From Vulcanimicrobiota bacterium (GTDB lineage: Bacteria > Vulcanimicrobiota > Vulcanimicrobiia > Vulcanimicrobiales > Vulcanimicrobiaceae), in contig OY970223.1 of NCBI GenBank assembly GCA_963714015.1, positions 96,001 through 160,000 on the forward strand: 64,000 nt of DNA, given 5' to 3'. Positions 10,408-60,645 of this stretch are shown here, one piece after another (position 1 is the stretch's first letter; each line of letters opens with the position of its first letter). A model generated the notes under the pieces. The model ran no database searches. It was given only the letters and a program-made list of their open reading frames with translations, and was not told the DNA's origin. The translations under genes and the position numbers were made by a program.

Positions 10408-10846
10408 ATGAATCCGCAGCCGACGACCGGTGAGATCCTCGAAGTGCTGCTCGACTTCCGCGACGCCGTTTCGAACCGATTCGACTTCGTCGATCGGACG
10501 CTCGCGGAACATTCTCGCGTATTGGAGCAACACTCTCAAACGCTGAACCGCCACGATCGCAAGCTCCAGTCGATTGACTTTCGGCTGGAGGGGGTCGACG
10601 AGCGGCTCGACACAATGGACGAGCGTTTCGACGGAGTCGATCGGCGGCTCGACAAAATGGACGAGCGTTTCGACGGAGTCGATCGGCGGCTCGACAAGAT
10701 GGACGAGCGTTTCGACGGAGTCGATCGGCGGTTCGACAAAGATGGACGAGCGTTTCGACGGAGTCGATCGGCGGTTCGACAAGATGGACGAGCGTTTCGA
10801 CGGAATGGATCGGCGGCTCGAGGTAATGGGGCAATACAGACGATAG
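10408..10846 (+). CDS. Heptad-repeat coiled-coil protein; +1 frameshift in an A-run at ~10740
   Basis: MDERFDGVDRR(L/F)DK repeats. One extra A in repeat 3 shifts the frame; the corrected frame ends LEVMGQYRR* at 10846. Confidence 0.7.
10615..10825 (+). repeat. Coding tandem repeat, 5 x 42 bp
   Basis: Unit ATGGACGAGCGTTTCGACGGAGTCGATCGGCGG(C/T)TCGACAA(A/G) starts at 10615, 10657, 10699 (43 bp), 10742 and 10784 (diverged). No spacers. Confidence 0.95.
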
Positions 10847-16441: not shown

Positions 16442-18505
16442 CTAGGCCGCCTGCGGCCCTTGTGCTCCTTCCTTAAAAGGATCATCCTTAACGATTCCGG
16501 CCGGAACGATTCGCACTTCCGAGGGCACCTCGGCATAACTGCAGACGTTCAGACGCAAGCCTGAACGAAGGAAAAAGTCGGCGAGCAACGGGCGAACGGA
16601 TCCCGTGCAGAGCAGCATCCCGTGCCCCTCGGGAAGGGACCGTGCATAGGCCGCAGCTTGGTCGCGGATCCAAAGCGCTGCCTCCGGTTCCACTCCCAGC
16701 GGGCCTGCGTGAAGCGACTCGGCCAGCCGCCGCTCGAGCTCGGGGTCCAGGAGCAGCGGCTCGACCGTCTCGACTCCCCGCCGGCGGAGCTGGGCCGGAA
16801 GCAGCACCTTTCGTGCCGCTTCGGCGAGGTCGCGAGGATCGCGGCTCGTCGCGCAGGCTTCGATCATCGCTTCGAGCACCGCCACCGGGTCGCGCGGCCA
16901 AACGCGCTCTCGAAGAAGCAGGCCGAACGCTTTCTGCACCGCGGCCAGCGGGAGCGCGTCGGTTCCGACTTCTTTTACGACGGTCGGAACGCTGACGCGC
17001 AGATGTTCGAGCAACGTTTGCAATTCTTGCCTACCCAGCAGCACCGCCGCATAGCTGCGGGCGACTTCGGCAAGGTGCGAGCCCGCGACGGAGATCGGAT
17101 CGAATACGAGCGCGCCTTCTTCCAGTGCCGCCTCACGGTGGTCCGGCTCGATCCACTTGGCGTTCAATCCGTAGACAGGCTCGAGCGCGGCAATTCCATC
17201 CAGACGTTCCAGCACCGCGTCGTCGGCGACGGCGAGCATGCGCGTCAGATCCAGCCATCCTTCACCGGCGAGCTCATCGCGAACGCGAATGCCGTAGGTA
17301 TCCGGATCGCGCGCCAGATCGTCGCGCAGTCTCACGCCGGGCAAAACGATACCGATCTCGGCCGCAAGCGCGCGGCGCACTTCACCGACGCGATCGAGCA
17401 GTGCGTCCGCAAGCGGAGGGGCGAGAAGTTGCGCGAGGTTCGCGCCGATTTCGATGCAGACCGCGTCGACGCCGACCAATCCTAACGCGAGTTCCGGACG
17501 GCGAATCGCTTGGCGCTTCGCGAGTTCGCGCTCCTGTCTTGCGCTCTGCAAGACGAACTGATTGCGCTTTTGCGCAAAGTGGGCGGCGGCGAACGCGCAC
17601 GTACCCAAAACGATGAACACCGGCCGAGGCAACGCCGGAACGAGCGCAAGTGCAAAGAGCAGGCCGCCGGCCACCCGCAGGATCTCCGGACGCGCGAAGA
17701 GCTGCGCCGCCAAGTCGGATCCGAGCGAGCCGTCCGAAGCGACGCGAGTGACCATCATGCCCATCGCCGTGGAGATCAAGAACGCGGGCAGCGTCGTGAC
17801 CAGCGCGTTGCCGATGGTAAGCAGGGCATAAGTGCGCAGGGCATCGGACGGCGCCATGCCGTGGTAGACCGCACCCACGATCACACCGCCCGCCAGATTG
17901 AGCGCGACGATGATCAGCGCTGCGATCGCATCGCCCTTCACGAACTTTCCGGCGCCGTCCATTGCGCCGTAAAAATCGGCTTCTCTTTGCACCAATTGGC
18001 GCTTCGCGCGCGCGCCTTCCGCATCGAGAACGCCGGCGTGCACGTCGGCGTCGATGGCCATTTGCTTGCCGGGCATTGCATCGAGCGTGAAGCGCGCGGC
18101 AACCTCGGCGACACGCCCGGAACCGCTCGCGATCACGACGAACTGGATAGTGATGAGGATCGCGAATACGATCAGACCGACGACAAGATTTCCGCGCACG
18201 ACAAACTCGCCGAACGCAGGGATGATCGCGCCGGCGCCTCCGGGTTCGTGACCTTGCGTAAGAATCAAACGCGTTGCGGAAACGTCGAGCGAAAGGCGGA
18301 ACAGCGTTGCCATGAGCAGTGCGGGCGCAAACGCGGAGAACTCCAGTGGTTCCTCTACGGTTACGCTCAGCAGCAAGACGAGCGCCGACGCGAAGACGTT
18401 GACGCCGAGCAGCAAGTCCAATAACGGCGGCGGCAGCGGAACGATCAGGATAGCGACAATCGACAGGAGCACCGCCGCAAAAGTATACGTTGGAATGCGG
18501 TTCAT
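16442..18505 (-). CDS. flhA: Flagellar type III export gate protein FlhA
   Basis: TLFRLSLDVSATRLIL, RVAEVAARFTLDAMPGKQMAIDAD, EADFYGAMDGAGKFVKGDA; 687 aa. Confidence 0.95.
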   Translation of the reverse strand: MNRIPTYTFAAVLLSIVAILIVPLPPPLLDLLLGVNVFASALVLLLSVTVEEPLEFSAFAPALLMATLFRLSLDVSATRLILTQGHEPGGAGAIIPAFGEFVVRGNLVVGLIVFAILITIQFVVIASGSGRVAEVAARFTLDAMPGKQMAIDADVHAGVLDAEGARAKRQLVQREADFYGAMDGAGKFVKGDAIAALIIVALNLAGGVIVGAVYHGMAPSDALRTYALLTIGNALVTTLPAFLISTAMGMMVTRVASDGSLGSDLAAQLFARPEILRVAGGLLFALALVPALPRPVFIVLGTCAFAAAHFAQKRNQFVLQSARQERELAKRQAIRRPELALGLVGVDAVCIEIGANLAQLLAPPLADALLDRVGEVRRALAAEIGIVLPGVRLRDDLARDPDTYGIRVRDELAGEGWLDLTRMLAVADDAVLERLDGIAALEPVYGLNAKWIEPDHREAALEEGALVFDPISVAGSHLAEVARSYAAVLLGRQELQTLLEHLRVSVPTVVKEVGTDALPLAAVQKAFGLLLRERVWPRDPVAVLEAMIEACATSRDPRDLAEAARKVLLPAQLRRRGVETVEPLLLDPELERRLAESLHAGPLGVEPEAALWIRDQAAAYARSLPEGHGMLLCTGSVRPLLADFFLRSGLRLNVCSYAEVPSEVRIVPAGIVKDDPFKEGAQGPQAA

Positions 18506-19497
18506 CGGGCTCCCTGGAGCGCGACGACGATCTCGGCGACGGCGACATACGTTTCGCGCGGAATGAAATCGCCGCTGCGGGCAGCGCCGTAGAGAGCGCG
18601 CGCGAGCGGAACGTCCTCGATAACCGGCACGCCGTGAAGCGCCGCGAGCTCTCTGACGCGCAGCGCGGCTTCATCAGCGGCGCGCACCAGCAGTCGCGGC
18701 ACCGGAACATCGGGAGGACGGTACTCGAGCGCCACTGCGACGTGCGTGGGGTTCACGACGACGAAAGCCGCGTCTTTGACTTTGGCAAGCGAACCGCGCG
18801 AGATCTGACGATGCAGCGATCGCCGGCGCCCGCGCGCGGCCGGGTCGCCGTCGTTCTCCTTTTGGTCGCGTTTGAGCTCTTCGTGCGACATGCGCAGCCG
18901 CTTCCTCCAGCGCTCCAGTTGCACGCCGTAGTCTCCTGCTGCAAAGATCGCGCCGACGACGCATGCGGCGATGCAATTGTGGATCGCACCGGACCAGGCT
19001 GCTTCCCCGACGCTGCGCAGGTCCCCCGAGTGCAGCGCCGCCGCAAAGATTGCACCGAACACGGGGACGATCGCGCAAGCGGACGCGGCGACAGCCACTC
19101 CCGCGCGTGCGACCGTGACGAGCGACTCGCGGGAAAAAGCACGCTTGAGATTCTCCACCGCGTTGAGGCGCTCGGTTTTTATGCTGATGGCGCAAAAGCG
19201 AATGCCTCCGGTTTGAACTGCATTCGCGGCGAGGGCGGCGGCGCCGGCACAAGCCGGCGGCAGAGCGGCGAAGGCGATCGTGCGAACGAATGCGGCGACG
19301 TCGACGATTCCGTGCGCGGCTGAAGTCAGCATTGCGGCCGCCGCGGCGCCCAGTTGCTGAATCGCCCAAGCTGCCGCGGCCAAACCGGTACCGAACGCAA
19401 CCGCTCCGGCCAGTTCGGTCGAGCGAGCGGCGTCGCCCTCGCGCTTGGCCTTCTCCATGCGCGAAGCGGTCGCTTCAAATGGTTTTTCTTCGGCCAC
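18502..19497 (-). CDS. flhB: Export switch protein FlhB
   Basis: EEKPFEATASRMEKAKREG, LRMSHEELKRDQKENDGDP, intact NPTH autocleavage motif. Confidence 0.93.
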   Translation of the reverse strand: MAEEKPFEATASRMEKAKREGDAARSTELAGAVAFGTGLAAAAWAIQQLGAAAAAMLTSAAHGIVDVAAFVRTIAFAALPPACAGAAALAANAVQTGGIRFCAISIKTERLNAVENLKRAFSRESLVTVARAGVAVAASACAIVPVFGAIFAAALHSGDLRSVGEAAWSGAIHNCIAACVVGAIFAAGDYGVQLERWRKRLRMSHEELKRDQKENDGDPAARGRRRSLHRQISRGSLAKVKDAAFVVVNPTHVAVALEYRPPDVPVPRLLVRAADEAALRVRELAALHGVPVIEDVPLARALYGAARSGDFIPRETYVAVAEIVVALQGAR

Positions 19498-19498
19498 G

Positions 19499-20218
19499 TC
19501 AATGCGCCGGCAAAAATGGAATTTGCAGCCACGGCGCGGCGCTCCGATCGAAAACGATCGGAATGCTAAGGAGCGTGGCGCATACGGCCGTGCCGAAGAC
19601 GAGCGGAAATGAAAGCGTGAACGTAGCGAAGCGAGGAATGACGCGCGAGAGCGCCGCCAGCGTCACCTGCACCACAAAGGCGAGTGCGATCGCAGGAGCG
19701 GCTACCAAGAGTGCGGCTTCCACGATCGAAAGCGGCAGCGCCGCGGCAAATTCGTACACGTCGCGCGATGCCGGAAGAACCCCCGGCGGCACGCTTCGAA
19801 AGCTCTGCGCAAACGCGTAGAGGGCAACGCGGTATCCGCCGAGCAAAAAATAGCCTGCGGTGAAGACCATCGACCAGATACGACCGAAGGCGGACGCAGC
19901 GAAGATCTGAACGTTCGGCATGCTGCCGCGGATCCCGACGTAATCGTCGAGCGCGCGCCCGCCGGCATAAGCACCGTCGTAAAGTATCGACGCGCCGATT
20001 CCGATCGCGGCGCCCACGGCAAAATCGCTCGCCGCCGATGCAGCAAGAAGTATTCCGTCAACGTGCCGCGCCGGCTGCACCGCCGGCGTGAGCGCCGCTG
20101 CAAGCAGCAGAGCGAAAGCAGCTCTTACGGCAGACGGCACGCTTGGGTGCGAGAATCCCGGCGCTCGGAAAACGAATCCGGCGCAGCGAGCGAAAACGAG
20201 TAGTGCGGTTGCCGTCAC
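19499..20218 (-). CDS. fliR: Export gate protein FliR
   Basis: LLVFARCAGFVFRAPGFS...VP..VR and LAALSRVIPRF; GTG start overlaps the fliQ stop (GTGA). Confidence 0.88.
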   Translation of the reverse strand: MTATALLVFARCAGFVFRAPGFSHPSVPSAVRAAFALLLAAALTPAVQPARHVDGILLAASAASDFAVGAAIGIGASILYDGAYAGGRALDDYVGIRGSMPNVQIFAASAFGRIWSMVFTAGYFLLGGYRVALYAFAQSFRSVPPGVLPASRDVYEFAAALPLSIVEAALLVAAPAIALAFVVQVTLAALSRVIPRFATFTLSFPLVFGTAVCATLLSIPIVFDRSAAPWLQIPFLPAH

Positions 20219-20481
20219 AGGTGGGTAAGGCTGTCGAGCTGAGTGATGACGTCGTTGAAGAGTCCGGCGCACAGATGCATCCCGAACGATCCCGCCAGCG
20301 CCACCATGATTCCGACGCCGAGCAGCTTGGGCAGCAGCGATATCGTCTGTTCCTGAATCTGGGTAGCCGCCTGAAACACTGCGACTGCGGTGCCGATGAG
20401 GGTTGCAACAGCCAGCACGGGGAGACACAGGAGCGCCGCGTCCATGAGCGTTTCGCGCAAGAGCGCATCGAATGCCGCCAT
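20215..20481 (-). CDS. fliQ: Export gate protein FliQ
   Basis: [17 protein letters not shown]; 88 aa from ATG 20481. Confidence 0.93.
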
Positions 20482-20572
20482 GCCGCCAAGATACGCGTCG
20501 AAGATTTCCGCTTTGCTACCGGTCCGTTGTCGTTGCAAGAGTCGCGCCGCGCTTGGACAAAAGAGGGAGGCG

Positions 20573-21931
20573 ATGAACTGGCGCTTTGTGATTCCGGCAG
20601 TGAGTTTAGCGTTGCTGCCGGCCTGCGGAGGCGGCGGTCCGGCGAGCGTGGGAGTTCCCGGACCCACGCAGACGCCCACGGCAACGATCCCGCCTTCGCC
20701 CTCTCCTGCTCCCGCCGGAAAAATCACGCACGTCGTCATCATCATTCAGGAGAACCGCTCGCCGGATAATCTCTTTCAAGGCCTTCCGGGCGCGGATATC
20801 TCGAGCGTCGGACTCGACTCCAACGGCAACACCGTACCGCTTCAGCCGGTGAGTCTTACGGCACCGTACGATCTGGATCACACGCACACCGGTTTTCTCA
20901 CCGAATTCAACGGCGGCCAAATGAACGGATTCGACAAAGAGAAATCGAGCTGTCCTTTGCATAACTGCAATACGGTCACCGCATACGGTTACGTACCCCG
21001 CTCGGAGACCGAGCCGTACTTCCACATGGCGCAGACTTACACGTTCGCGGATCGCATGTTCCAATCGAATGCGGGGCCGAGCTTCCCGGCACACCAATAT
21101 TTGCTGAGCGGCACCTCCGCGGTTTCGACGGGCAGTAATCTCTACGCTTCGGAAAATCCGGTGTACGCAAACGGCAACAAGGGAGACTGCGACGGCGATC
21201 CCAATTCCCGCGTCACGCTCATCGACATTCTGACCGGAGTCGAAAACGCAACCCAATTCCCGTGCTTCGATCATGCGACGATGTTCGACGTGATGGATCG
21301 AGCGGGCGTATCGTACAAGTACTATACGTCCACGGTCGACGGGCTGTGGGGAGCGCCGGATGCGATATCGCATATCCGGTTCGGTTCCGATTGGGCGCGG
21401 GTGGTCGAGCCGGACAAGCAGATCTTCAGCGACATCACTGCAAATACGCTGCCCGCGGTTTCCTGGGTAATACCGACTGCCGAAGAGAGCGATCACGCCG
21501 ACGGCAATGACGGGACTGGTCCTTCCTGGGTTGCCTCGGTCGTGAATGCCGTCGGTCAGTCGCAATACTGGCCGAACACTGCGATCTTTGTGACGTGGGA
21601 TGATTGGGGCGGATGGTACGATCACGTCAAACCGCAGCAGTTCAATGCGTACGAGCTGGGGTTTCGCGTGCCGCTCATCGTCATCTCACCGTATGCTCGC
21701 CCCGCTTACGTTTCGCACGTGCAGCATGAGTTCGGCAGTATCTTGCATTTCACGGAAGAGCAGCTGGGCCTCTCCTCGCTCGGATTTACCGATGCGCGAG
21801 CCGACGATTTGAAGGACTGCTTCGATTTTTCGCAGCCGCCGCTGGCTTTTCACACGATTCAATCGCGTTTCAAAGCAAGTTACTTCATCCATCTTCCGCC
21901 CTCGAACAAACCGGTCGACACCGATTTTTAA
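20573..21931 (+). CDS. Phosphoesterase / phospholipase C (AcpA-like) lipoprotein
   Basis: GGGAGG RBS, lipobox [44 protein letters not shown]. Confidence 0.9.
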
Positions 21932-21940
21932 ACTCCGCGT

Positions 21941-22850
21941 CTAGGGCGGAGCGCCTTCCAAAACTCTGAAGGCTCGCCACGCCGTTGCGGCAAGCAGCGC
22001 GCTCACGATCGCGCGCGTAGCCGGCGATTTATTGAGCGTGTAAAAATGAATGCCCGGAGCGCCGCGCTGCAGCAGATCCGTGCATTGCAGCGTCGCATAG
22101 GCGACGCCGAGTTCTTCGATGGCCTTGGGCTCGTCGCGTCGGACCTGCAGTTCCGCGAGCAATTTCGGCGGGATGGTGGCACCGCACATTGCGGTAAAAC
22201 GCTGAATCTGTTCGAAGTTCGTGATCGGCATGATCCCGGGCAGAATGGGGACGTGGATGCCGGCGGCGCGGGCGCGATCGACGAACTGGAAGTAGCGATC
22301 ATTTTCGAAAAACAGCTGCGTGATCAAAAATTCGACGCCCGCATCGACCTTGCGCTTGAGGAATTGCAAGTCTTCGTCTAGACTCAGCTGCCTCGATGTG
22401 CTTCTCCGGATAGCACGCTCCGCCGATACAGAAATGGTAATTGCGCTCGATCATCGCGATGAGATCGGAAGCATGCTCGAAGCCGCCGGCGGGCGCTTTG
22501 AAAACGGCCGTGTCCTTCGGCGGGTCGCCGCGCAGGCCAAGCACGTTCTCGATTCCGGCGGCTTCGAGGTCGTTGAGAACGGTGCGCAAATCCGCGCGGG
22601 AGCTGCCGACGCACGTGACGTGAGCCATGACGTTGATGCCGATTTCGTTCTGAATATGTTTCGAGACTTCAATCGTGCGGGCTCGCGTCGAGCCGCCCGC
22701 ACCATAGGTCACCGAGACGAACGCCGGACGAAGTTCGCGTAAAGTTTTCGCAGCCTCAATGAGATGGACGTAAGCTTCGTCCGTGCGCGGCGGAAAGAAT
22801 TCGAATGAGAAAAACGGCCGTTGCCGCGCCAGCGTCTGGCTGATTCGCAT
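21941..22850 (-). CDS. metF: 5,10-methylenetetrahydrofolate reductase; +1 frameshift at ~22382
   Basis: SFEFFPP, SVTYGAGG, LRGDPP, YPEKH in one frame; LKRKVDAG, ITQLFF, GIHFYTLN in the next. Confidence 0.93.
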
Positions 22851-23551: not shown

Positions 23552-23836
23552 TTAGCCGGGTTTTTGAATCAGTTCCGTAACGCGAACGCCGAAGTTCTCG
23601 TCGATGGCCACGACCTCGCCGCGCGCGACCAATTTGCTGTTCACGAGCAAGTCCACCGGACCGCCGGCCAGACGATCCAACTCGACGATCGAACCCGTGC
23701 CCAGCTTCAAGATCTCGGAGACGGCCATCTTGCATTTGCCGAGTTCCGCCGTAACTTGGAGCGGCACGTTCATAAGCAGATCGAGATTCTGTTGATCCGC
23801 CACCAAGGCGCCGTTTCTTTTTTGTTCAGCCATCAT
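23552..23836 (-). CDS. fliN: C-ring protein FliN (SpoA domain)
   Basis: [44 protein letters not shown]. Confidence 0.95.
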
Positions 23837-23845
23837 CGTCGTTGT

Positions 23846-24634
23846 CTATCCTTGTAACGGGCAGCTTTGGAGACGTATTGCGTGGTGCTCCCCAACGGCG
23901 CCGCACTCGCCGCGTCCGATGACGGACGCTCCGAGCTTGAGCAGACCCGGTTCTCCTATCCTAGTGTTCATCGGCAGGATGACGCCAGGGCGTAAGTCCA
24001 GGAGTGCGGAGGCAAGGATGGTGCCATGGAGTACGTCGACCGTGAGCTCGACCAGGACGTCGGCAAGATTCTCGGGGGCCAAGCGACCGGATGGCGCCGC
24101 GGCAGGGTCGCGGGCCACCGCCACGCCGATTCTCAGCGGCGCCGGCTGCTCGACGAGCATTTCAAAATATGTGGTAAAGCCGCCGATGGAATCGATCGGC
24201 TCAGGTGCGGTCGGGTTTGGTCCGCACACGGCCGCTAAGGAGCCCGCGAGAGCCCTCAGCGCGCGGACGGTGACCTCGCCTTCGAGGCGGGATAGCGGCC
24301 GATCGCCGGCAGGCTGCTCGCCGAAAGCGGCGGCTGCGAACGCCAGCGCGTCGGCGGGCCGCAAGACCAAAGCGGCGTCGTTTACGGATCCGCGGACGGC
24401 GTAAAGGTATGCGTCCGCGGAGATTGCGGCCCAAGCGTCCGGGTCCGGAACGAGCGGTTCGAGCAGCCGCAGCGTCACCGGAGTTTTCAAAAGGGAGCAA
24501 AGCGCTTCTCGAACGCCGTTCGCTACGACGCAGGCTGCACTGACCGGAAGCGAGGATCGCCGCTCGAATACGGCGCGGCGAACACCGCTCTCGCGTTCGT
24601 CGGGCAATGCGTTTTCGAACGCGAGAAACCTCAT
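23846..24634 (-). CDS. fliM: Divergent FliM-like C-ring protein lacking the N-terminal CheY-binding peptide
   Basis: Lies before fliN; middle-domain-like AALVLRPADALAFAAAAFG...RPLSRLEGEV; SpoA-like C-terminus (LADVLVELTV...LLDLRPGVILPM...GRGECG). Confidence 0.7.
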   Translation of the reverse strand: MRFLAFENALPDERESGVRRAVFERRSSLPVSAACVVANGVREALCSLLKTPVTLRLLEPLVPDPDAWAAISADAYLYAVRGSVNDAALVLRPADALAFAAAAFGEQPAGDRPLSRLEGEVTVRALRALAGSLAAVCGPNPTAPEPIDSIGGFTTYFEMLVEQPAPLRIGVAVARDPAAAPSGRLAPENLADVLVELTVDVLHGTILASALLDLRPGVILPMNTRIGEPGLLKLGASVIGRGECGAVGEHHAIRLQSCPLQG

Positions 24635-25347
24635 TTCAAAAGGTCCATCGCAATTTTTTCGGCGCCTGCGCCGGCAACGTTAGCCGCGCGAATCGCATCC
24701 AGCGCAATGTAAGCTTCTTGCAGGCGATCCAAGCCCAGATCGATATCGATCGTTCCGGCAGCTTTGTATCCGGGCGCGAGTTTGCCGAAAGCACTGTCCC
24801 CCGGCTTACCGGTGTGCGGAAAGATTCCGGCCGGCGCCGCAAGATGCCGCGTATCGACGCGCTGAAGCTTGGTTCCGGGAGCGAAGCGCGCCAGAGCGAT
24901 TCGCCCGACGGAAATCCTTTGAAGCTCGGCTCGTCCCGTCCGCGGATCGACGGCGCGACGATCGTAGACAACGGTGCCGTCGGCGTCGACCCGTGCATTT
25001 ATGCCCACACCCAACGCGACGTCCACCGGATCGGCATGCAGCGCTTCCAGCGCCGCACCCTCGCCGGAATATCCAAGCACGGCATTTCCGTTCGAGTCGA
25101 CCAATTTTCCGTCATGAAAAGCGAACGTGCCGTCTTGCGTGAACAGCGTCTTGCCGTTTTCGCTCGCAACGACGAAGTAACTCTGCTCCGGAGCAGTCGC
25201 GCAAAGCCCGTCTGTCGCGGGCAACGGGCGCGCCGCCCGCGCAACGTCGCTCATTTCCGGGACCGCGCCGGGTACATACGCCCGAAGTACGTCTCGCTCG
25301 CGCGCCGCAATTTCGTCAATTGCGCGAGCAGTCGCTGCCGTCAGCAT
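24631..25347 (-). CDS. Divergent FlgF/FlgG-like rod/hook-family axial protein
   Basis: SYFVVASENGKTLFTQDGTFAFHDGKLVDSNGNAVLG matches the FlgEFG 'FF.V....YTRDG.F......LV...G..VLG' pattern; VGRIALARF; C-terminal D0 helix. ATG 25347, 238 aa. Confidence 0.75.
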   Translation of the reverse strand: MLTAATARAIDEIAARERDVLRAYVPGAVPEMSDVARAARPLPATDGLCATAPEQSYFVVASENGKTLFTQDGTFAFHDGKLVDSNGNAVLGYSGEGAALEALHADPVDVALGVGINARVDADGTVVYDRRAVDPRTGRAELQRISVGRIALARFAPGTKLQRVDTRHLAAPAGIFPHTGKPGDSAFGKLAPGYKAAGTIDIDLGLDRLQEAYIALDAIRAANVAGAGAEKIAMDLLK

Positions 25348-25901
25348 CCGGCCTCGGCGCGCGTCTCTGCGTTCAAACGAATGCCGGAACGGGCAAGTGA
25401 GTAGCGGGCCTGCGCCAGCGCAGCGGCAACCTGCGCATTTGCTCTGGGTGCGCACACCGCCACCAAATCGACGCGCTTCCCGCGCGAACGCAGCAGAATT
25501 TGAACGCGGCCGCCTTCGCCTTCAATTGCGAACGCCGCCTTGTTCGGGAGCGCCGCCTGTTTTGAAAACCTGCGCGCAATCGCTTTTGCAAGCGGCGATC
25601 GCGGCAATCGCCGATCGGCGATTTGCGAGCTCAAACGCGTAGCTGCGTTTGACTTTTGAGTGCGGTTGCACCAGGCGCGCTCGGCATCGGTCGTCGACTG
25701 GGTAGCGTGATGCTCCGATTTGCCCTGGACTTCGGATAATGCGCAAGTCGGCGCTTGCGGACCGGCGGATTTTGCAGTACCAGACTGCTCGCCCCGAGAG
25801 CCGTAAAGCGCGGAGTACCACGCCTGGGAAAGCGCGCGCCGGTCGTACGATGCCACCGGTGCGCTCAGAACGCTGAATCCTAATTGCTCGTCGATCGTCA
25901 T
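25341..25901 (-). CDS. Putative miniature FliK-like length-control protein
   Basis: Low-complexity N-terminal/central region, then GRVQILLRSRGKRVDLVAVC...VAAALAQARYSLARSGIRL, resembling the FliK C-terminal (T3S4) domain; located in the cluster. Confidence 0.5.
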   Translation of the reverse strand: MTIDEQLGFSVLSAPVASYDRRALSQAWYSALYGSRGEQSGTAKSAGPQAPTCALSEVQGKSEHHATQSTTDAERAWCNRTQKSNAATRLSSQIADRRLPRSPLAKAIARRFSKQAALPNKAAFAIEGEGGRVQILLRSRGKRVDLVAVCAPRANAQVAAALAQARYSLARSGIRLNAETRAEAGC

Positions 25902-25946: not shown

Positions 25947-27575
25947 TTATTGAAACATTTCCCCGGGGTCTTGCACGCGCTGACGATAACGCCCGTCGTC
26001 GAACGCTGCGGATTTGAGCGCATACATCTTGGAATTGGCTTCATCGAACGTGATGACGAAGTTTTTCAGTACGCCCATGCCGATGTTCCCTGCGTCGAAG
26101 CGGTCCGCGAAAGCGCCGCGATCGCTCATGATGATGTTCGCGTAGCGGTTATAGAAATGGAACGGCCCGAAATCGAGTTCGTCGATGTAGCCGAAGGACG
26201 CCCGTGCAGAACCGCCGACTCCGTAGTCGTTAGCGGCGCGTTCGCGATCTTCCAGGGGGACGACGTACGGATGCGCTTGCATGAAAGGCGAGTACAGCAG
26301 CAACTCCGTGCTGTTTCCGGTGTCTACGACGAACGTTCCATCAATGCGGTTCACCGATCCGTCCAACTCGACCAGTTGGCGGTCGTTGTCGATGCTGAAG
26401 GCGCTGCCCTTGGGATCCAGCGTGCCGGGTTTTCCGAACGTCATGGTGCGAGCGACCGGATCGATCGTCACCTCCGCGGAGGCGAAGAACGGATAGCCGA
26501 GCACGCCGTCCGCGCCGGTGGCAGCGCGCAGGTCCAAAACCGATACGGAATGGACCGGGAGAGCAGCGCCCCCGATCTGAATCGAATTCAGAGCGGCAAA
26601 ACCCAGGCCGCCGACCCGTTTGGCGCCCGCGACCTCCAAATGGCCCTGGTACTGCAATCCTTGCTGCGCAGCAACTTGGGTATCCAATGCAATCATCTGC
26701 GCGCCGGTGTCGACGAGAAACCGGTAATCGCGCGTTCCGACGCGGACCTGTACGAAAAAGTGCCCCTGCTCCTCGTGCAGCGGAACGGTGACGGGTTTGT
26801 CGGTTTGAATCACCGTGGAGACCGGAAGCGCGAACACCTTAGGATCGACCGCGCCGTCGATTACGACGTCTTTGATCAAGTGCGTGAGATCGTACACGCG
26901 ATCGCCGTTGGAGTCGACCTCGCGCATTGCAACCAGCGTGCCGCGAATTACCTGATAGTCGTAATAGTCTTCGGTGGATACGCCGTCATCTTCGTCGTAC
27001 GCGACGCGATCGATCATGAAGGTCTTTGCGTCCAGATACAATGTCTCGGGTTGACCGCCGGGCGGCGCAACCTCGATGGCGTACGTCGATCGTCCGTCGG
27101 GCAGCGTGGCTGCGTTTTTGAGCGTATCGTATCGAGGCGTCGAAACGAAAGACTCGGAATCCACGAAATCTTCGGTCAGCTGCCGTTTCGCCAGAATTCC
27201 GTGCAGTTCGCGCACGTCACCCGTTTCATTTATCGCGTACTCCCGATCGTTCAAGCGCAATGAGGCCGTCGTGTGTGAGACGGTTTCGTCGTCCTCACGC
27301 GCGTCGCTGCCCATCGACCACCGCCGGAAAGAACCGGTGAGATCGCCGGCAACGATAGGCCCCGAGATCTCGATGGATCGGGCGGGATGCAGCGGCAGCG
27401 CGGCCATTGCGGCGCGCCGATCTTGCAGAATGGTTTGTAAAGAAAGCGTCTGTGCGCGCGCGGGCGCAAAGGTCAGTGCGGCGATCGCCACGGCAAGCAG
27501 CGCCGTAGCGCTACGGAGTTTTGTACTTTGCGTAGCTTTGCATGACGTTCTGAACGTAATTCTGCGTTTCGGCAT
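25947..27575 (-). CDS. Secreted tandem retropepsin-like aspartyl protease (start uncertain)
   Basis: Signal-like ATALLAVAIAALTFAPARA; two catalytic motifs FLVDTGA and FVVDTGN; DGVLGYPFF and GNIGMGVL. Confidence 0.85.
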   Translation of the reverse strand: MPKRRITFRTSCKATQSTKLRSATALLAVAIAALTFAPARAQTLSLQTILQDRRAAMAALPLHPARSIEISGPIVAGDLTGSFRRWSMGSDAREDDETVSHTTASLRLNDREYAINETGDVRELHGILAKRQLTEDFVDSESFVSTPRYDTLKNAATLPDGRSTYAIEVAPPGGQPETLYLDAKTFMIDRVAYDEDDGVSTEDYYDYQVIRGTLVAMREVDSNGDRVYDLTHLIKDVVIDGAVDPKVFALPVSTVIQTDKPVTVPLHEEQGHFFVQVRVGTRDYRFLVDTGAQMIALDTQVAAQQGLQYQGHLEVAGAKRVGGLGFAALNSIQIGGAALPVHSVSVLDLRAATGADGVLGYPFFASAEVTIDPVARTMTFGKPGTLDPKGSAFSIDNDRQLVELDGSVNRIDGTFVVDTGNSTELLLYSPFMQAHPYVVPLEDRERAANDYGVGGSARASFGYIDELDFGPFHFYNRYANIIMSDRGAFADRFDAGNIGMGVLKNFVITFDEANSKMYALKSAAFDDGRYRQRVQDPGEMFQ

Positions 27576-28098
27576 AAGGCGGAACTCCGCCATACTTCTC
27601 CACGGCCCCAGGCCCTGCATTGTACGCCGCGACCGCGAGAGGCACATCGCCGTGGAAGCGATCGAGCAAGCCGCGCAGGTAACGCGTGCCGCCCGAGACG
27701 TTTTGGGCCGGGTCATAGGCGTTGGACACACCGAGCTCCGCCGCAGTGGACGGCTCGAGCTGCATCAATCCTTGGGCACCGGTCTTCGAAGTGGCGTTGG
27801 CGTCGAATCCGGATTCGTTCGCGATAATCGCCTTGACCAGTGCGGGATCGACTCCCCAAGCGGCGGCATTTGCGCCCGCGAGCTGCGCGATCTGCGGCGG
27901 CGGTACGATTGCCGGCACCTGCGCGGACGACTCTTGCTGCTGAGCCGTCAGCACCGGATCTTGTTGATTGTCCATCGCCGTGGACACGAGCTGCGCGAAA
28001 GATGAAGACGGGCTCGGGCCGGCAACGCCCGGGTCGATCTGCTGCGTGATCTCGGAGATTCGCCGCGTTACGGCGGCAAGGTCGGCGGTGATGTCCAT
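27511..28098 (-). CDS. SLT-family lytic transglycosylase
   Basis: AIIANESGF, GAQGLMQL, AVAAYNAGPG, PPYAETQNYV; no Sec signal. Confidence 0.93.
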   Translation of the reverse strand: MDITADLAAVTRRISEITQQIDPGVAGPSPSSSFAQLVSTAMDNQQDPVLTAQQQESSAQVPAIVPPPQIAQLAGANAAAWGVDPALVKAIIANESGFDANATSKTGAQGLMQLEPSTAAELGVSNAYDPAQNVSGGTRYLRGLLDRFHGDVPLAVAAYNAGPGAVEKYGGVPPYAETQNYVQNVMQSYAKYKTP

Positions 28099-28102
28099 AC
28101 GT

Positions 28103-29335
28103 TCACCTCAAGGTATCGGCAAGGGCGGCTAGCCCCGATAGGGTTTGTTCAGGCGGAATCGGCCGCTCGTCTTGGCGCAGGAAGTCTTCGAGCACCGGCT
28201 CGCATGCCGCGGCTCGAAGGGCGCCCGCGCCGGCCGGCATGATGCCGAGGTCGCGAGCATCGCGGGTTCGTGCAAGGGCCGCCAAAGCAGATCGAACCAC
28301 CGAGGCGCAATCCTGATGCTCGCGTTCCGTAACCAAGTGCATCGTGCGGCTCGCACTGGCCAGCGGATCGATTGCCGGAAACCGTCCCGCGCGAGCCAGC
28401 TCGGCGGAAAGCTGGACGTGCCCGTCGAGCAGCGATCGAGCGGCATCGCTGACCGGATCGCGCTCGTCGCCGTCGGAGAGAATGCTTGCGATGAGCGTTA
28501 TCGAGCCGGCCGGGCCGGTTCCCGCCGCCTCGAGAAAGTGCGCCATCTGCGCGAAGACGCTGGGCGGATATCCGCCTCGCCCAACGCTCTCTGCGCGCAG
28601 AACGCCGCTCTCGCGTAAAGCCGATGCAAAGCGCGCGAGGCTATCCAAAACCAAAAGCACGTGCAAACCTCGCCCGCGCAGCGCGCTCGCTTGAGCGATT
28701 GCCACGTGTGCGGCGCGGATGCGTTCGGCCGCGCTCCTGTCGCTGGTCGCGCAAACGACGGTGGCGTTACCCGGCGCGACGCGCATCCACTCCTCGGCCT
28801 CTCGTCCGCGTTCGCCGACGAGCGCTACGACGACGGCATCCGCGCAAACGCCGCGCACCAGCATGTGCAGGAGCGTCGATTTCCCGGCGCCGGGCGGACC
28901 GAATAATCCGACGCGCGCGCCGCGGCCGATTGTCAGCAGCGCGTCGATCGTACGAATACCGGTCCAGAGCGGTTCGCGTATTTCGGATCGCGCCGAAGGA
29001 AGCGGAACGTCCGCATTGACCGGCGTGGGAAGTCCGCGCAACGCTCCACGTTCGTCGAGCGGTTTGCCGTAAGGATCGAGTGCCCGGCCCAGAAGCATCG
29101 TTCCGAGAGGCATTACTACGGATCGAGGATCGCTCAGAACCGGATCGCCGGACGCCACGCCTTCGCAATCTCCGTGAAGCATCACGTCTGCGCGCGCGTC
29201 GTGCAATGCGACGACCGTACCGGTCACTTTGCCGCGGGCAGTCCGTACGAGAACGCCTGCACCGAGCTCGGCCGCAGGAATCGACGCTTGGACCAAGCCG
29301 CCGCACGCCGAGAGCACACTGCCCCGAGCGATCAT
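28103..29335 (-). CDS. fliI: Type III export ATPase FliI
   Basis: Walker A GPPGAGKST, GERGRE, LDSLARFA, GYPPSVF, LLDGH, FPAIDPLASASR. Confidence 0.93.
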   Translation of the reverse strand: MIARGSVLSACGGLVQASIPAAELGAGVLVRTARGKVTGTVVALHDARADVMLHGDCEGVASGDPVLSDPRSVVMPLGTMLLGRALDPYGKPLDERGALRGLPTPVNADVPLPSARSEIREPLWTGIRTIDALLTIGRGARVGLFGPPGAGKSTLLHMLVRGVCADAVVVALVGERGREAEEWMRVAPGNATVVCATSDRSAAERIRAAHVAIAQASALRGRGLHVLLVLDSLARFASALRESGVLRAESVGRGGYPPSVFAQMAHFLEAAGTGPAGSITLIASILSDGDERDPVSDAARSLLDGHVQLSAELARAGRFPAIDPLASASRTMHLVTEREHQDCASVVRSALAALARTRDARDLGIMPAGAGALRAAACEPVLEDFLRQDERPIPPEQTLSGLAALADTLR

Positions 29336-29811
29336 GCAAAATCCCGCAGAATCGACTGTAAGCGAACGCCGAGCGTCGCTTCGATCGATCCGCTGCGCAG
29401 TTCGAGGACCGCATCGCCGGGCAGCAGCGCGCCGTCTGCGACGACGGGTAGACCGCAGTTTACCAGCGTTGCTTCACTCGGATGCAGACGGACGCGCAAC
29501 GGATCGTCGTTGAAGAAACGCGCCGAAAGACGTTGCACGATTGCATCTATGTCGACGGACGTTATCTGCAGCTCCCGGGCTAGAACTTCAGCGGCCAAAT
29601 CCGCGCAAATCTGCCGCACAGCATGGTCTACGCCTTCGGCAACGGCGGCTTTGAACAAACGCACGCCGCTAAGCAAAGCTGCGGTCTCTCCGGCATCGCC
29701 TTCATCCTCACGTGGAGGTGGCGCCTGCGGGAACGGTTCAGTTTGAGCGATGCCGGGCGCCGGTTCCCGCGGCCTGACCATCGAGGCCAGCGAGCGAAAC
29801 GTTTCAGGCAT
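29332..29811 (-). CDS. fliH: Short FliH-like ATPase stator
   Basis: Between fliF/G and fliI; LRVRLHP...ADGALLPGDAVLELRSGSIEATL; 159 aa. Confidence 0.75.
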   Translation of the reverse strand: MPETFRSLASMVRPREPAPGIAQTEPFPQAPPPREDEGDAGETAALLSGVRLFKAAVAEGVDHAVRQICADLAAEVLARELQITSVDIDAIVQRLSARFFNDDPLRVRLHPSEATLVNCGLPVVADGALLPGDAVLELRSGSIEATLGVRLQSILRDFA

Positions 29812-31270
29812 GCGTTATGAAGCGCTCGGCATCGGGCAGTAGCGGCGAACCAGGACGATGCATGCGCCGAATGATCGCGCTGCGTTCGTGCTCCGGATAC
29901 ATTTCCAGTACGGCGGCAGCCGTCGCTGCGGGAAGGGCGCTGATGATGGCCGCGGCCGTATGCGGCGGCTCGTTTTCCAGCGATGCGCGTACGCCGGCCG
30001 GCGGAATGTCGCGCGATTTCTCCGCAGCGCTTGCGATTGCGGCGCGTTGACCCATCGCCTGCAGCGCCGCCGACAGCGGGCGGGAAGCATAACGCATTCC
30101 GATTGCAGCCCCGGCTGCGAGAATGAGCGCAGGCAAGACCGGAACGACGGCGCCGTACGCCAGCCACCAGCCGTCTTTTCTTGCCAAAGGCGTTCGAGTG
30201 AAATTCATCGCCTGCACTTCCAAGACGTCGCCGCGGCGCGGATCGATGCCGAGGGTGGCGGCTGCCAGAGCGCGGACGGGGACGATGTCCGCGATCTGCG
30301 CAGAGTCGACGAAGACCGCAGCAGTTATCCTCGCAATGCGTCCTCCTTGCGCGGATGTGGTCTCTTCACTCGTATCGCTTCCGCGATCGAGGTCCTGAGC
30401 GGATTTCTCGTAGCGCTTGCCGCCGTCGAAATAGTGCTCGTCTTGAGTGTTTGCCGCGATCGGCAGCGCCGATAAGGGAACGCGCCGAACGTTTCTTCGC
30501 ATCACGCTGCTGCGGTCGTATTCGATGTGCACGCGAACCAATGCCGCTCCCGCTCCAAGCGTCGAATCCAAGGCGCTCTGCAGCGAATGCTGCAAATCCG
30601 AGGCGCCGGCGTCCGATGCTCCTTCCTCCAGCGCAACGCCGCGATCGTCCACGATCTTCACGTTGCGCGGATCGAGTCCGGCAACGCTCGCCGCAACGAA
30701 CGAGCGAACACCGCCGACCGCTTGCGCGGAAAGCCGCGCACCGGGCTGCAGCGTCAATCGCACGCTGGCCGTCGCCGCGCTCGACGCGTCGTCGGCATAA
30801 TACCCTTCCCGCGCCGGAGCGATAATGACGCGCGCATCCTGGATGCCTTGGATTCCGCGCAGACTCAGTTCGATGTCGCCGGCCAAACCGTCACGCGTCT
30901 GGGCGTCAATCACTGATTGTGGGGTTAGCGCGCCCAGTTTCCCAAGAACGTCACTGGTGCCTTGCACATGCGCATGGGGCGTACCCGCCATAGACAGCTT
31001 CAGCAAAAGATCGCTGCGGCGCGCGCCGTCGATGAGCACGTTGTCGGCGGAAGGCGTGAAGGGAACGTTCCAACTCGCTAGGCGTTCTTCGACTTCACCG
31101 AGCTGGTCCGGCTGCAGGGCGCCGGCGAAGAGCGGAACGCGCTGCGAATGCGTTAGAACTCCGGCTGCGATGCTGACGAAGACCAAGGCGATGCAAGCTG
31201 CGGCCGTCAGCTTTCGCGTGCGCGCAGGCAGGGTGTTCCAGCGCGCGAAAAGCGCGGCCGCATCGGTCAC
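29804..31270 (-). CDS. fliF: MS-ring protein FliF fused to a FliG middle-domain-like segment
   Basis: TM1, ring-building motifs (DIELSLRGIQGIQDARVII, TASVRLTL, VAASVAGLDPRNVKIVDDRG), RITAAVFVD, RRGDVLEV, TM2, then LENEPPHTAAAIISALPAATAAAVLEMYPEHERSAIIRRM. Confidence 0.85.
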   Translation of the reverse strand: MTDAAALFARWNTLPARTRKLTAAACIALVFVSIAAGVLTHSQRVPLFAGALQPDQLGEVEERLASWNVPFTPSADNVLIDGARRSDLLLKLSMAGTPHAHVQGTSDVLGKLGALTPQSVIDAQTRDGLAGDIELSLRGIQGIQDARVIIAPAREGYYADDASSAATASVRLTLQPGARLSAQAVGGVRSFVAASVAGLDPRNVKIVDDRGVALEEGASDAGASDLQHSLQSALDSTLGAGAALVRVHIEYDRSSVMRRNVRRVPLSALPIAANTQDEHYFDGGKRYEKSAQDLDRGSDTSEETTSAQGGRIARITAAVFVDSAQIADIVPVRALAAATLGIDPRRGDVLEVQAMNFTRTPLARKDGWWLAYGAVVPVLPALILAAGAAIGMRYASRPLSAALQAMGQRAAIASAAEKSRDIPPAGVRASLENEPPHTAAAIISALPAATAAAVLEMYPEHERSAIIRRMHRPGSPLLPDAERFITHA

Positions 31271-31274
31271 CTCG

Positions 31275-31544
31275 TCATACCTGCATGTTCAGTATCGACG
31301 TCAATGCCTGCGCGGTGCGTCCGGCGGCGGCGCTCGCAACCGACAGTGCGACGTCTGCGCGGGCACGCTCGTACACTGCGGTTTGAAGATCGCCGGCACC
31401 CGACGCGAATGCATCTTCGGCGCCCTGCGCCGTCGTGAAAACCGATCCGAGATCATCGAGCAGTTTGCCGAATGCACTTGCGTCCGAGGCGTGCAGAGGA
31501 GCAGCCGTTTCCGGAGCATCGGGGAGCAGATTTTCGATCCTCAT
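31275..31544 (-). CDS. fliE: Basal-body protein FliE (reads in frame with upstream flgC in this sequence)
   Basis: SAFGKLLDD, GAGDLQTAVYERARADVAL and the terminal ILNMQV motif; directly upstream of fliF. Confidence 0.85.
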   Translation of the reverse strand: MRIENLLPDAPETAAPLHASDASAFGKLLDDLGSVFTTAQGAEDAFASGAGDLQTAVYERARADVALSVASAAAGRTAQALTSILNMQV

Positions 31545-31877
31545 CAGCTTGCCCATGTCGATCGTGCGCTCGGCCAGGCGTTTTCCGGCGTCGAAAACCG
31601 AAGCGTTCGCTTCGTATGCCCGCGTGGCATTGAGCACCGCCACCATCTCAGTGAGAACGTCGACGCTGGACCCGCGATCGACGTGCGCGCCCGCGTAGAC
31701 CACTTGCGGTGATCGGCCGTCGGCTTGCACGAGCCGAAAATCCGCAATCAAACGCGGATAAGAGCCTTTGGGTCCCGCCGCTTCGGCTGCCGCGACGTTC
31801 CGCGCCTCCACGTCCAATGCGGCGCGTTGTGCGTCCATTCCGCTTGCGGCGGTCGCAAGCAAACCGAGGCTATCCAT
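31541..31877 (-). CDS. flgC: Short proximal rod protein FlgC
   Basis: AASGMDAQRAALDVEARNVA and VDVLTEMVAVLNATRAYEANASVF; about 111 aa; no stop before fliE as sequenced. Confidence 0.85.
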
Positions 31878-60488: not shown

Positions 60489-60645
60489 GCCAAAACCGGC
60501 GCCCGGCCGATCGCCTCGACGTCGGGCGCCGTGACGTCCGCAACGACGGAAGTTCGGGGACTCGCGGTCCAATTGTACGGCCCGTGACGCGGCGTGGTAC
60601 AGTTGACGTAGTTGGGAGGTGCAAGGTGTGAAGCGAGCCCACCAA

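Follow-up and report, generated by a model that had tools for sequence, protein, structure and literature searches.

The cytoplasmic sorting platform is fastened to the membrane rings through the three-domain protein FliG in flagella and through SctK and SctD in injectisomes, two arrangements of which one has turned into the other in evolution. A FliF-FliG fusion has been reported for Chlamydia (PMC4768692), and engineered full-length FliF-FliG fusions for Salmonella and Vibrio (PMC10941966, PMC11481574). The fusion analyzed here is encoded in a stretch of 64,000 nucleotides from a Vulcanimicrobiota bacterium (assembly GCA_963714015.1, contig OY970223.1, positions 96,001 to 160,000 of the forward strand), which is referred to as the window. 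The protein, FliF', is a paralog of the membrane-supramembrane (MS) ring protein FliF and ends in a FliG middle domain (FliG_M). The gene cluster around it probably encodes a type III export apparatus that is paralogous to the flagellar one, derived from a flagellum and non-rotary, and in which all that is left of FliG is a dock for FliM, joined to the MS ring. No published description of this system in Eremiobacterota was found in the literature.

The open reading frame (ORF) of FliF' contains the following features, and the observation of a FliF paralog with a FliG_M tail at these coordinates is confirmed:

29804..31270, minus strand, stop included: FliF' (FliF paralog, P0001, with fused FliG_M tail), 488 aa, from Pfam
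29807..30013, minus strand: C-terminal tail of FliF', residues 420-488, FliG middle (ARM_M) domain
29855-29986, minus strand: the Pfam FliG_M match proper, residues 429-472
30086..30172, minus strand: TM2, the second hydrophobic segment of FliF' (about residues 367-395), presumed to span the membrane and picked out by eye

Both ring-building families are present in FliF' above their Pfam gathering scores, YscJ_FliF (PF01514) at residues 41-215 (E 1.1e-25, 91 bits, cut-off 24.4) and YscJ_FliF_C (PF08345) at residues 282-357 (E 7.2e-11, 43.2 bits, cut-off 23.8), which places it among the FliF/SctJ ring proteins. In addition, a profile of the FliF' family matches solved FliF chains in the PDB (E 7.7e-21 to 5e-20). 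It is not an equivalog of flagellar FliF, as it reaches 66.7 bits against the 129.75 required by the NCBIfam model TIGR00206, and in the same genome PF01514 gives 211 bits to the canonical FliF versus 93 bits to FliF'.

The hydrophobic stretch WWLAYGAVVPVLPALILAAGAAIGM, at about residues 368-392, was taken as TM2 by eye from the translation. Residues 422-470 read IPPAGVRASLENEPPHTAAAIISALPAATAAAVLEMYPEHERSAIIRRM (nucleotides 29861-30007) and are followed by 18 further residues and a stop codon at 29804-29806, and the FliH-like ORF (29332-29811) starts at 29811, overlapping the FliF' ORF by 8 nucleotides. This arrangement agrees with the one described in a first-pass annotation made from the sequence alone, which had also claimed that FliG_N and FliG_C were lost from the protein. 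The claim holds, since neither FliG_N (PF14842) nor FliG_C (PF01706) has a match in the FliF' ORF (Pfam, E <= 0.01), the gap between TM2 and FliG_M is too short for a FliG_N domain, and there is no space for FliG_C because fliH overlaps the stop codon. Moreover, the canonical FliF of the same genome ends in ...IAKLVKLWLAE, and by eye FliF' has no counterpart of this ending after TM2.

The assignment of the tail to FliG_M, also made in the first-pass annotation, is well supported by Pfam together with the predicted fold. PF14841 matches residues 429-472 with E 7.9e-9 and 36.1 bits (gathering cut-off 25), covering profile positions 6-49 of 76, and in a genome-wide scan this family appears at just two sites, the canonical fliG and the FliF' tail (36.1-38.8 bits at the tail). 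BLASTP aligned the tail to residues 141-176 of the FliG of the same genome. When the tail was compared with the PDB by phmmer, FliG middle domains ranked first, weakly (E 0.095-0.6), and in the alignment to Thermotoga maritima FliG the tail places EPPHT over EHPQT and RRM over KRI. The AlphaFold model of the tail, built with an alignment of 18 sequences (A3), has five helices and a mean pLDDT (predicted local distance difference test) of 78.7. In a Foldseek search of the PDB with this model, ranks 1-8 are all FliG chains and 9 of the first 10 rows are FliG, the tenth row (rank 11) being MgtE; the query-normalized template modelling (TM) scores of the matches are 0.61-0.71. For instance, 3usy_B superimposes on the model with a root-mean-square deviation (rmsd) of 0.9 A over 49 columns, with 33% identity and probability 1.00. 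Furthermore, hhalign pairs 63 columns of the tail with FliG residues 140-205, nearly the entire middle domain. Because of this alignment and the five-helix model, the tail may span nearly all of the compact FliG_M fold and not be a mere fragment of it. The possibility that the tail is FliG_N or MgtE_N was considered and rejected, as there was no Pfam match to either and both MgtE and the FliF_C:FliG_N complex stand below FliG_M in Foldseek.

The EHPQR motif is located on the FliM-binding face of FliG. In the homologs of FliF' the glutamate of EHPQ is kept as an invariant E434, the histidine is replaced by an invariant P435, the proline is P or A at position 436 and the glutamine is H437. R469, which lies over the KRI arginine of T. 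maritima FliG, is invariant in an alignment of 26 sequences. Beyond the assigned domain, residues 471-488 (window 29807-29860) are also conserved as RPxSPLLxDAExFIAxA, with R472, P476 and L477 invariant, and are modelled at low confidence (pLDDT about 51-54).

A homolog search with FliF' retrieved 1010 proteins at E <= 0.001, and of the 120 listed among them, 119 have a precomputed PF14841 match, with lengths of 444-489 aa. In the 26-sequence alignment, whose members are 55-77% identical to the query, 21 of the 47 tail positions 431-477 are invariant versus 74 of the 430 preceding ones; the tail is the most conserved part of FliF', and the linker after TM2 is the least conserved. Relatives of FliF' are encoded in 118 species genomes of GTDB. 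The best 80 of these 118 are nearly all titled Eremiobacterota, Vulcanimicrobiota or Baltobacteraceae, and most matches among these 80 extend to query residue 478-488, three ending earlier, at the end of the locus. A phmmer search of 1.84 billion representative sequences with the tail alone matched 70 proteins. The near-full-length FliF-paralog-like matches are mostly 464-505 aa long, with the tail at their extreme C-terminus, and normal FliG appears only at E 6.5e-4. The length of FliF' is constant, at about 487 aa, across independent assemblies, and for this reason a single indel or an assembly artefact was rejected as the origin of the fusion, in agreement with what had been argued from the missing space. 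A search of sequencing runs for the sequence gave no RNA run among those listed; the DNA runs that appeared were three soil metagenomes from a single study, with 0.21, 0.08 and next to none of the sequence words present.

The distribution of the fusion was examined in one sample of 401 genomes of the phylum, searched with the tail and with FliG_C. The tail tally includes the unpublished genomes G245, G247, G263, G178, G212, G391, G329, G275, G230 and G232, and the FliG_C tally the unpublished genomes G230, G247, G263, G212, G370 and G359. Related genomes in these tallies are non-independent observations.

All 401 genomes: tail in 278, FliG_C in 201
Family f1: tail in 257/296, FliG_C in 134/296
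Family f2: tail in 5/5, FliG_C in 4/5
Family f3: tail in 11/30 (weak E), FliG_C in 0/30
Family f6: tail in 0/19, FliG_C in 16/19
Family f20: tail in 0/16, FliG_C in 16/16
Genus g4: tail in 72/80, FliG_C in 0/80
Genus g19: tail in 11/12, FliG_C in 0/12
Genus g25: tail in 10/11, FliG_C in 0/11
Genus g8: tail in 5/9, FliG_C in 0/9
Genus g3: tail in 3/3, FliG_C in 0/3
Genus g21: tail in 18/18, FliG_C in 18/18

FliG_C is found alongside the tail in the source genus g1 (2/2), in g21 (18/18) and in g2 (27/33). Full-length searches recovered the fusion in f2 at 42% identity, beside a canonical FliF, and in f3 in the three genomes tested (3/3), at 35-38% identity and in ORFs of about 470 aa, where the tail reads ...ESPRTAAYVLSTLPQSTRERVLASY... 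and the EHPQ-equivalent motif is ESPR. Taken together, the phylum tallies and these full-length matches in f2 and f3 indicate that the fused form is old and limited to one class-level clade among those sampled.

Five single-contig genomes that are 95-99% complete (G011, G036, G045, G097 and G177) have the tail and no FliG_C match. Each of them has exactly one FHIPEP (FlhA) match, and flagellin was found above the cut-off in none of the five, with one sub-threshold match of 21.7 bits. Hence, the fused form is kept where no FliG_C or flagellin match was found. This bears on the first-pass annotation, according to which a full-length fliG elsewhere in the genome would refute its reading. Such a gene does exist, at about 1.95 Mb, and the reading is not overturned by it, because relatives without a FliG_C match keep the fusion; the test was badly chosen. 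The earlier interpretation of the FliF-FliG_M fusion is therefore supported, with the caveat that a fliG is present in a separate canonical set of the genome.

The presumed partner of the tail is a FliM-like protein of the same cluster, FliM', of 262 aa. By sequence it shows only a FliN-type C-terminal domain (Pfam FliMN_C, residues 189-256), and for its middle domain neither Pfam FliM (PF02154) nor TIGR01397 gives a match above the cut-off. A model of FliM' built with a 26-sequence alignment (A2) exceeds pLDDT 90 over about residues 30-175 and has 36 structure matches in the PDB at E <= 0.001, with the FliM of the Salmonella C-ring at the top (E 2e-9). The FliM middle domains crystallized with FliG_M (4fq0, 4fhr, 3soh and 4qrm) are also matched, the superposition on 4gc8_A gives a TM score of 0.63 and an rmsd of 3.3 A, and CheC and CheX stand farther down the list. 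FliM' is thus a FliM at the fold level only, by the model for the middle domain and by FliMN_C for the C-terminal one. In addition, it does not carry the N-terminal LSQEEIDAL-type peptide that the canonical FliM of the genome has. By eye, the canonical ...LLGGPG...RDLTDIE... can be placed against ...AAFGEQP...RPLSRLE... of FliM', an equivalence that we infer. If it is right, the presumed interface would be altered on both of its sides, with EPPH in place of EHPQ on the tail and FGE in place of GGXG on FliM'.

The genes of the cluster, together with other ORFs located among them, are the following:

31275..31877, minus strand: FlgC-like rod protein part and FliE part in one 200-aa ORF (Pfam Flg_bbr_C 69-108, FliE 133-200; NCBIfam below cut-off)
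29332..29811, minus strand: short FliH-like protein, 159 aa (Pfam FliH 56-153, E 1.6e-7)
28103..29335, minus strand: FliI/SctN-type export ATPase (SctN 346.9 bits, FliI clade 1 332.3 bits, neither reaching its equivalog cut-off)
27511..28098, minus strand: lytic transglycosylase (SLT), from Pfam/NCBIfam
25947..27731, minus strand: conserved member of the cluster, retropepsin-like (Asp_protease_2 domain) and beginning like a signal peptide, true start probably downstream of 27731
25341..25901, minus strand: conserved protein of 186 aa, no family match
24631..25455, minus strand: FlgE/F/G-family rod or hook-like protein, from Pfam and NCBIfam
23846..24634, minus strand: FliM' (FliM-like, P0213), 262 aa, predicted FliM middle-domain fold and FliN-type C-terminal domain
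23552..23836, minus strand: FliN, 94 aa
22862..23518, minus strand: FliP export-gate protein (228.1 bits, above the cut-off of 217.45)
21941..22850, minus strand: metF, frameshifted in the window
20390..21931, plus strand, opposite to the cluster: phosphoesterase
20269..20463, minus strand: FliQ (match coordinates)
19499..20428, minus strand: FliR, true start probably downstream of 20428
18502..19497, minus strand: FlhB/SctU
16442..18505, minus strand: FlhA

FliP is the only protein of the cluster that exceeds its NCBIfam equivalog cut-off. Among the 69 window ORFs scanned with Pfam there are no stator, hook-associated, filament, secretin or needle families. The locus thus does not look like that of a bacterial flagellum, as no genes for a stator-rotor interface, hook or filament are present among these ORFs (MotA/MotB were not searched genome-wide). 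Families for SctC, SctD, SctK and SctF are likewise absent from the scanned window ORFs, with no genome-wide search made for them. The 186-aa protein and the small ORFs upstream of flgC have no Pfam match even at E <= 5, and an impression of FliK-type likeness at the C-terminus of the 186-aa protein is unsupported. ORFs of comparable size and without a family match stand at the same position in the two other loci described next (174 aa in L029 and 185 aa in G045).

Synteny was compared by hand in two loci, L029, from another chromosome, and L109, from G045. The order of the cluster is kept in both, with intact genes. In G045 the cluster is encoded in open frames for FliF-FliG_M (E 8e-8), FliI, FliM', FliN, FliP, metF, FliQ, FliR, FlhB and FlhA. 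At the FlgC-like/FliE place, L029 has a 200-aa ORF (L029:9377-9979) of which only the FliE part matched Pfam, and G045 has FlgC-like and FliE in separate ORFs (L109:1507-2274 and 2271-2555) with a 4-nucleotide overlap. The single ORF of the window could be either a second gene fusion of the cluster or a reading-frame artefact. The metF gene follows fliP in the three clusters examined, and in the window and G045 fliQ comes on its other side (no fliQ was located in L029). It is split in the window into two overlapping frames, covering profile positions 1-160 and 163-285, and is intact, with 310-311 aa, at L029:19382-20314 and L109:12627-13562. Counterparts of the Asp_protease_2 gene are located at L029:13498-15156 and L109:5783-7357. 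Unrelated insertions differ by genome. The window has the phosphoesterase, placed between metF and fliQ, and G045 has a fused oxidoreductase/epimerase (L109:7441-9522), which follows the Asp_protease_2 gene.

The canonical fliF-fliG pair is 1.8 Mb from the window, at about 1.949-1.954 Mb of the single contig of the source assembly (G000:C1, completeness 89.6%). That locus encodes FliF, a three-domain FliG (N, M and C), a FliH of 284 aa, FliI and FliJ, and holds the sole FliG_C match of the genome, at 1.95 Mb. Elsewhere in the genome there are also flagellin matches, a canonical FliM and one more copy each of FlhA and FliQ. The two FlhA/FliQ sets and the separate canonical fliF-fliG pair therefore point to two systems in this genome, the window carrying the divergent one.

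Several genes of this assembly are broken. The canonical fliF changes frame just before its own second transmembrane segment (L013:10085-10120, G000:C1 about 1950090), and the matches to the canonical flhA (G000:C1:1979310-1981275) and to one flagellin (G000:C1:2835720-2836131) are each spread over two frames. These cases and the split metF suggest either assembly indel errors or a canonical flagellum that is decaying in this strain. In the window, an adenylate/guanylate cyclase part and AAA and TPR parts are encoded in two overlapping ORFs at 60619-63371 (plus strand). The joined pair resembles a single 910-aa cyclase-NB-ARC-TPR protein that is encoded beside the canonical flagellar locus (L013:16271-19003, minus strand), and the two ORFs may be the result of another frameshift. 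Moreover, the spacer between the canonical fliF and fliG (L013 about 10410-10590) contains about six tandem 30-nucleotide units, one frame of which reads TNLPGALGE and then a stop.

Regarding these data, the apparatus could work as follows. The separate fliG would have been lost from the cluster and only its middle ARM_M domain would survive, on the cytoplasmic end of FliF', joined to it by a variable and presumably flexible linker of about 30 residues. Each FliF' subunit would then present one FliG_M domain below the membrane ring. This domain may dock FliM', with its predicted middle-domain fold and its SpoA domain, and FliM', FliN, FliH and FliI would form a cytoplasmic sorting platform beneath a complete export gate. 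The apparatus may export at least its own rod-type subunits, and the lytic transglycosylase could serve for passage through the wall. The device would export proteins and drive no filament. The FliG_C torque domain and FliG_N are missing, and therefore the ring is not expected to be turned by a stator, since without FliG_C there is nothing for a stator to push; this view of the FliF' ring comes from gene content. A normal FliG is not expected to dock on FliF' either, as FliF' has neither the canonical C-terminus nor a FliG_N of its own. The identity of the domain, its conservation, the make-up of the cluster and its retention in genomes with neither a FliG_C nor a flagellin match are observed, and the contact between tail and FliM', the absence of rotation and the nature of the exported proteins are deduced.

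Several results weigh against this interpretation. The sequence tests other than Pfam support the FliG_M identity weakly: the Foldseek E-values of the 71-residue tail model are 0.08-0.7, none of them <= 0.001, hhalign of the tail (A3) against the FliG of the genome gives E 0.0017 with a probability of only 15.7%, and a profile of the full-length homologs (A1) reaches PDB FliG chains only at E 0.097-0.63. The middle domain of FliM' has no similarity to the canonical FliM of the genome by BLASTP or hhalign, and because it reads, by eye, FGE where the canonical protein has GGPG, the canonical EHPQR-GGXG contact would not be conserved as such. The conserved last 18 residues of FliF' have no role in the docking account. 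Furthermore, a complete FliG is encoded in the same genome, where help in trans is possible, no FliJ homolog was found in the window cluster, and the analysis identified neither an exported substrate nor a hook, filament, needle or outer-membrane part; the label of export machine comes from gene content.

Some of these points can be explained if the tail is a FliG_M that does another job, stabilizing the ring by tail-to-tail contacts or holding FliH/FliI or the cytoplasmic ring of FlhA, with FliM' and FliN attached in some other way. ARM_M stacks on ARM_C in FliG rings, which offers a model for the tail-to-tail contacts. This explanation would account for a FliM' without detectable similarity to FliM_M and with FGE at the GGXG stretch, for the altered EHPQ (EPPH, and ESPR in f3) and for the final 18 residues, whose conservation, with invariant R472, P476 and L477, lacks an assigned partner. 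We know of no cytoplasmic partner class of FliG_M established by experiment other than FliM_M, besides FliG itself, and this counts against it. In addition, a protein with a predicted FliM middle fold is present in every cluster examined (window, L029 and G045), and E434 and R469 are invariant. A tail that does not dock FliM' is, for these reasons, unlikely. Docking could also hold and only the output of the machine be different, since the apparatus might be a platform for another envelope structure, such as a periplasmic rod-only body or membrane nanotubes, and not for effector secretion. The biogenesis of nanotubes by a flagellar export core is the topic of an earlier study (PMC6456723). The axial proteins of the locus are only of rod type (FlgC-like, FliE and one FlgE/F/G-like) and are accompanied by the lytic transglycosylase, and no hook, filament, needle or secretin is found among the window ORFs scanned, which would fit such a structure. 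However, nothing points to it specifically, and we regard this output as unlikely.

A role of the FliF' ring in motility is much harder to sustain. Canonical FliG, FliM and Mot proteins would have to assemble on FliF', or FliF' would have to co-assemble with the canonical FliF, and the coexistence of FliG_C and tail in the source genome and in genera g1 (2/2), g21 (18/18) and g2 (27/33), as well as the canonical flagellar set with flagellin matches in the source genome, would speak for such a role. On the other hand, FliG_C is absent from the tail-bearing genera g4 (0/80), g19 (0/12) and g25 (0/11), each of the five single-contig genomes has one FlhA and lacks a flagellin over the cut-off, FliF' does not have the FliG_N-binding type of C-terminus of the canonical FliF, and the cluster brings a full export gate, an ATPase, a FliM and a FliN of its own. 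This makes the motility role very improbable. That a duplicated flagellar locus is decaying here, with the cluster as its relic and the fusion as a functionless deletion scar, is scarcely credible. The frameshift-split genes of the assembly (metF in the cluster; canonical flhA, flagellin and fliF) and the fact that all cluster proteins but FliP fall under the NCBIfam equivalog cut-offs could be taken as signs of decay. Nevertheless, the frameshifts point to assembly indels because housekeeping genes are hit too, and the FliF' frame is open and of constant length in 119 of the 120 homologs listed. No part of the protein is better conserved than the tail, the order is kept with intact genes in L029 and G045, and the tail is retained in 257/296 genomes of family f1 and in two further families. 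A non-rotary export apparatus with FliG_M as its FliM dock hence accounts better for the data.

If this export apparatus is real, Eremiobacteria could, tentatively, carry a third and independent offshoot of the flagellum beside the flagellum and the injectisome, in which the rotor protein has been cut down to the part that docks FliM and has been welded to the MS ring. Such an offshoot would represent, in living form, a stage through which the injectisome lineage is presumed to have passed, after the loss of motility and before FliG was replaced by other adaptors, and a natural minimal joint between MS ring and sorting platform. The clade would offer a strongly conserved natural minimal solution, with one FliG_M per FliF subunit and no torque domain. 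Some genera keep the cluster with a normal flagellum and others keep it alone, and because of this the clade is a ready comparative system for studying what the flagellar export core does once it has stopped building a propeller. Eremiobacterota are abundant in soil and have few cultures, and a conserved secretion-type machine would bear on their ecology. The first cultured member of the phylum, Vulcanimicrobium alpinus, is described as having no flagella and no flagellin gene and as moving by type IV pili (PMC9758169).

Compared with the MS-ring and C-ring of the canonical flagellum (e.g., Salmonella 8umd, 8vib and 9n49), the window system has in common the FliF ring domains, the FliG_M fold, the predicted FliM middle fold and FliN, as well as the gene order flgC-fliE-fliF-[fliG]-fliH-fliI. 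Unlike the flagellum, it has no FliG_N, no FliG_C and no FliG_N-binding stretch at the C-terminus of FliF, its FliG_M is covalently joined to FliF', its FliM' is without the LSQEEIDAL-type peptide, and the window locus has no stator, hook or filament genes.

The short FliF of Chlamydiaceae, fused to a FliG-like domain in organisms without a flagellum (Bergeron 2016, PeerJ), is the closest natural precedent. The chlamydial fusion is reported to be about 330 aa long, with part of the periplasmic ring domains missing, and to be accompanied by only a handful of orphan flagellar genes (FliI, FlhA), the injectisome being a separate system. In comparison, FliF' is of full length and stands in a complete cluster of export gate, ATPase, FliM, FliN and rod genes. 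The engineered FliF-FliG proteins (PDB 8z4d/8z4g) likewise are single chains that form rings, and the FliF' family profile has its best sequence match in the PDB to 8z4d, in the FliF part of that chain. Unlike FliF', these are laboratory constructs that keep the whole FliG including the torque domain.

With the injectisome (SctJ/SctD rings and a SctK-SctQ-SctL-SctN platform), the window system shares a flagellum-related export gate and what would be a non-rotating platform, and the window ATPase and FlhB score slightly better on the SctN and SctU models of NCBIfam. FlhA and FliP score better as flagellar proteins, on the other hand, and, unlike in the injectisome, SctD, SctK, secretin and needle are missing from the window ORFs scanned, and the window system retains FliE and rod proteins of the flagellar kind. 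FliG is entirely absent from the injectisome, which fastens its platform through SctK-SctD, whereas the platform encoded in the window would dock through a remnant of FliG.

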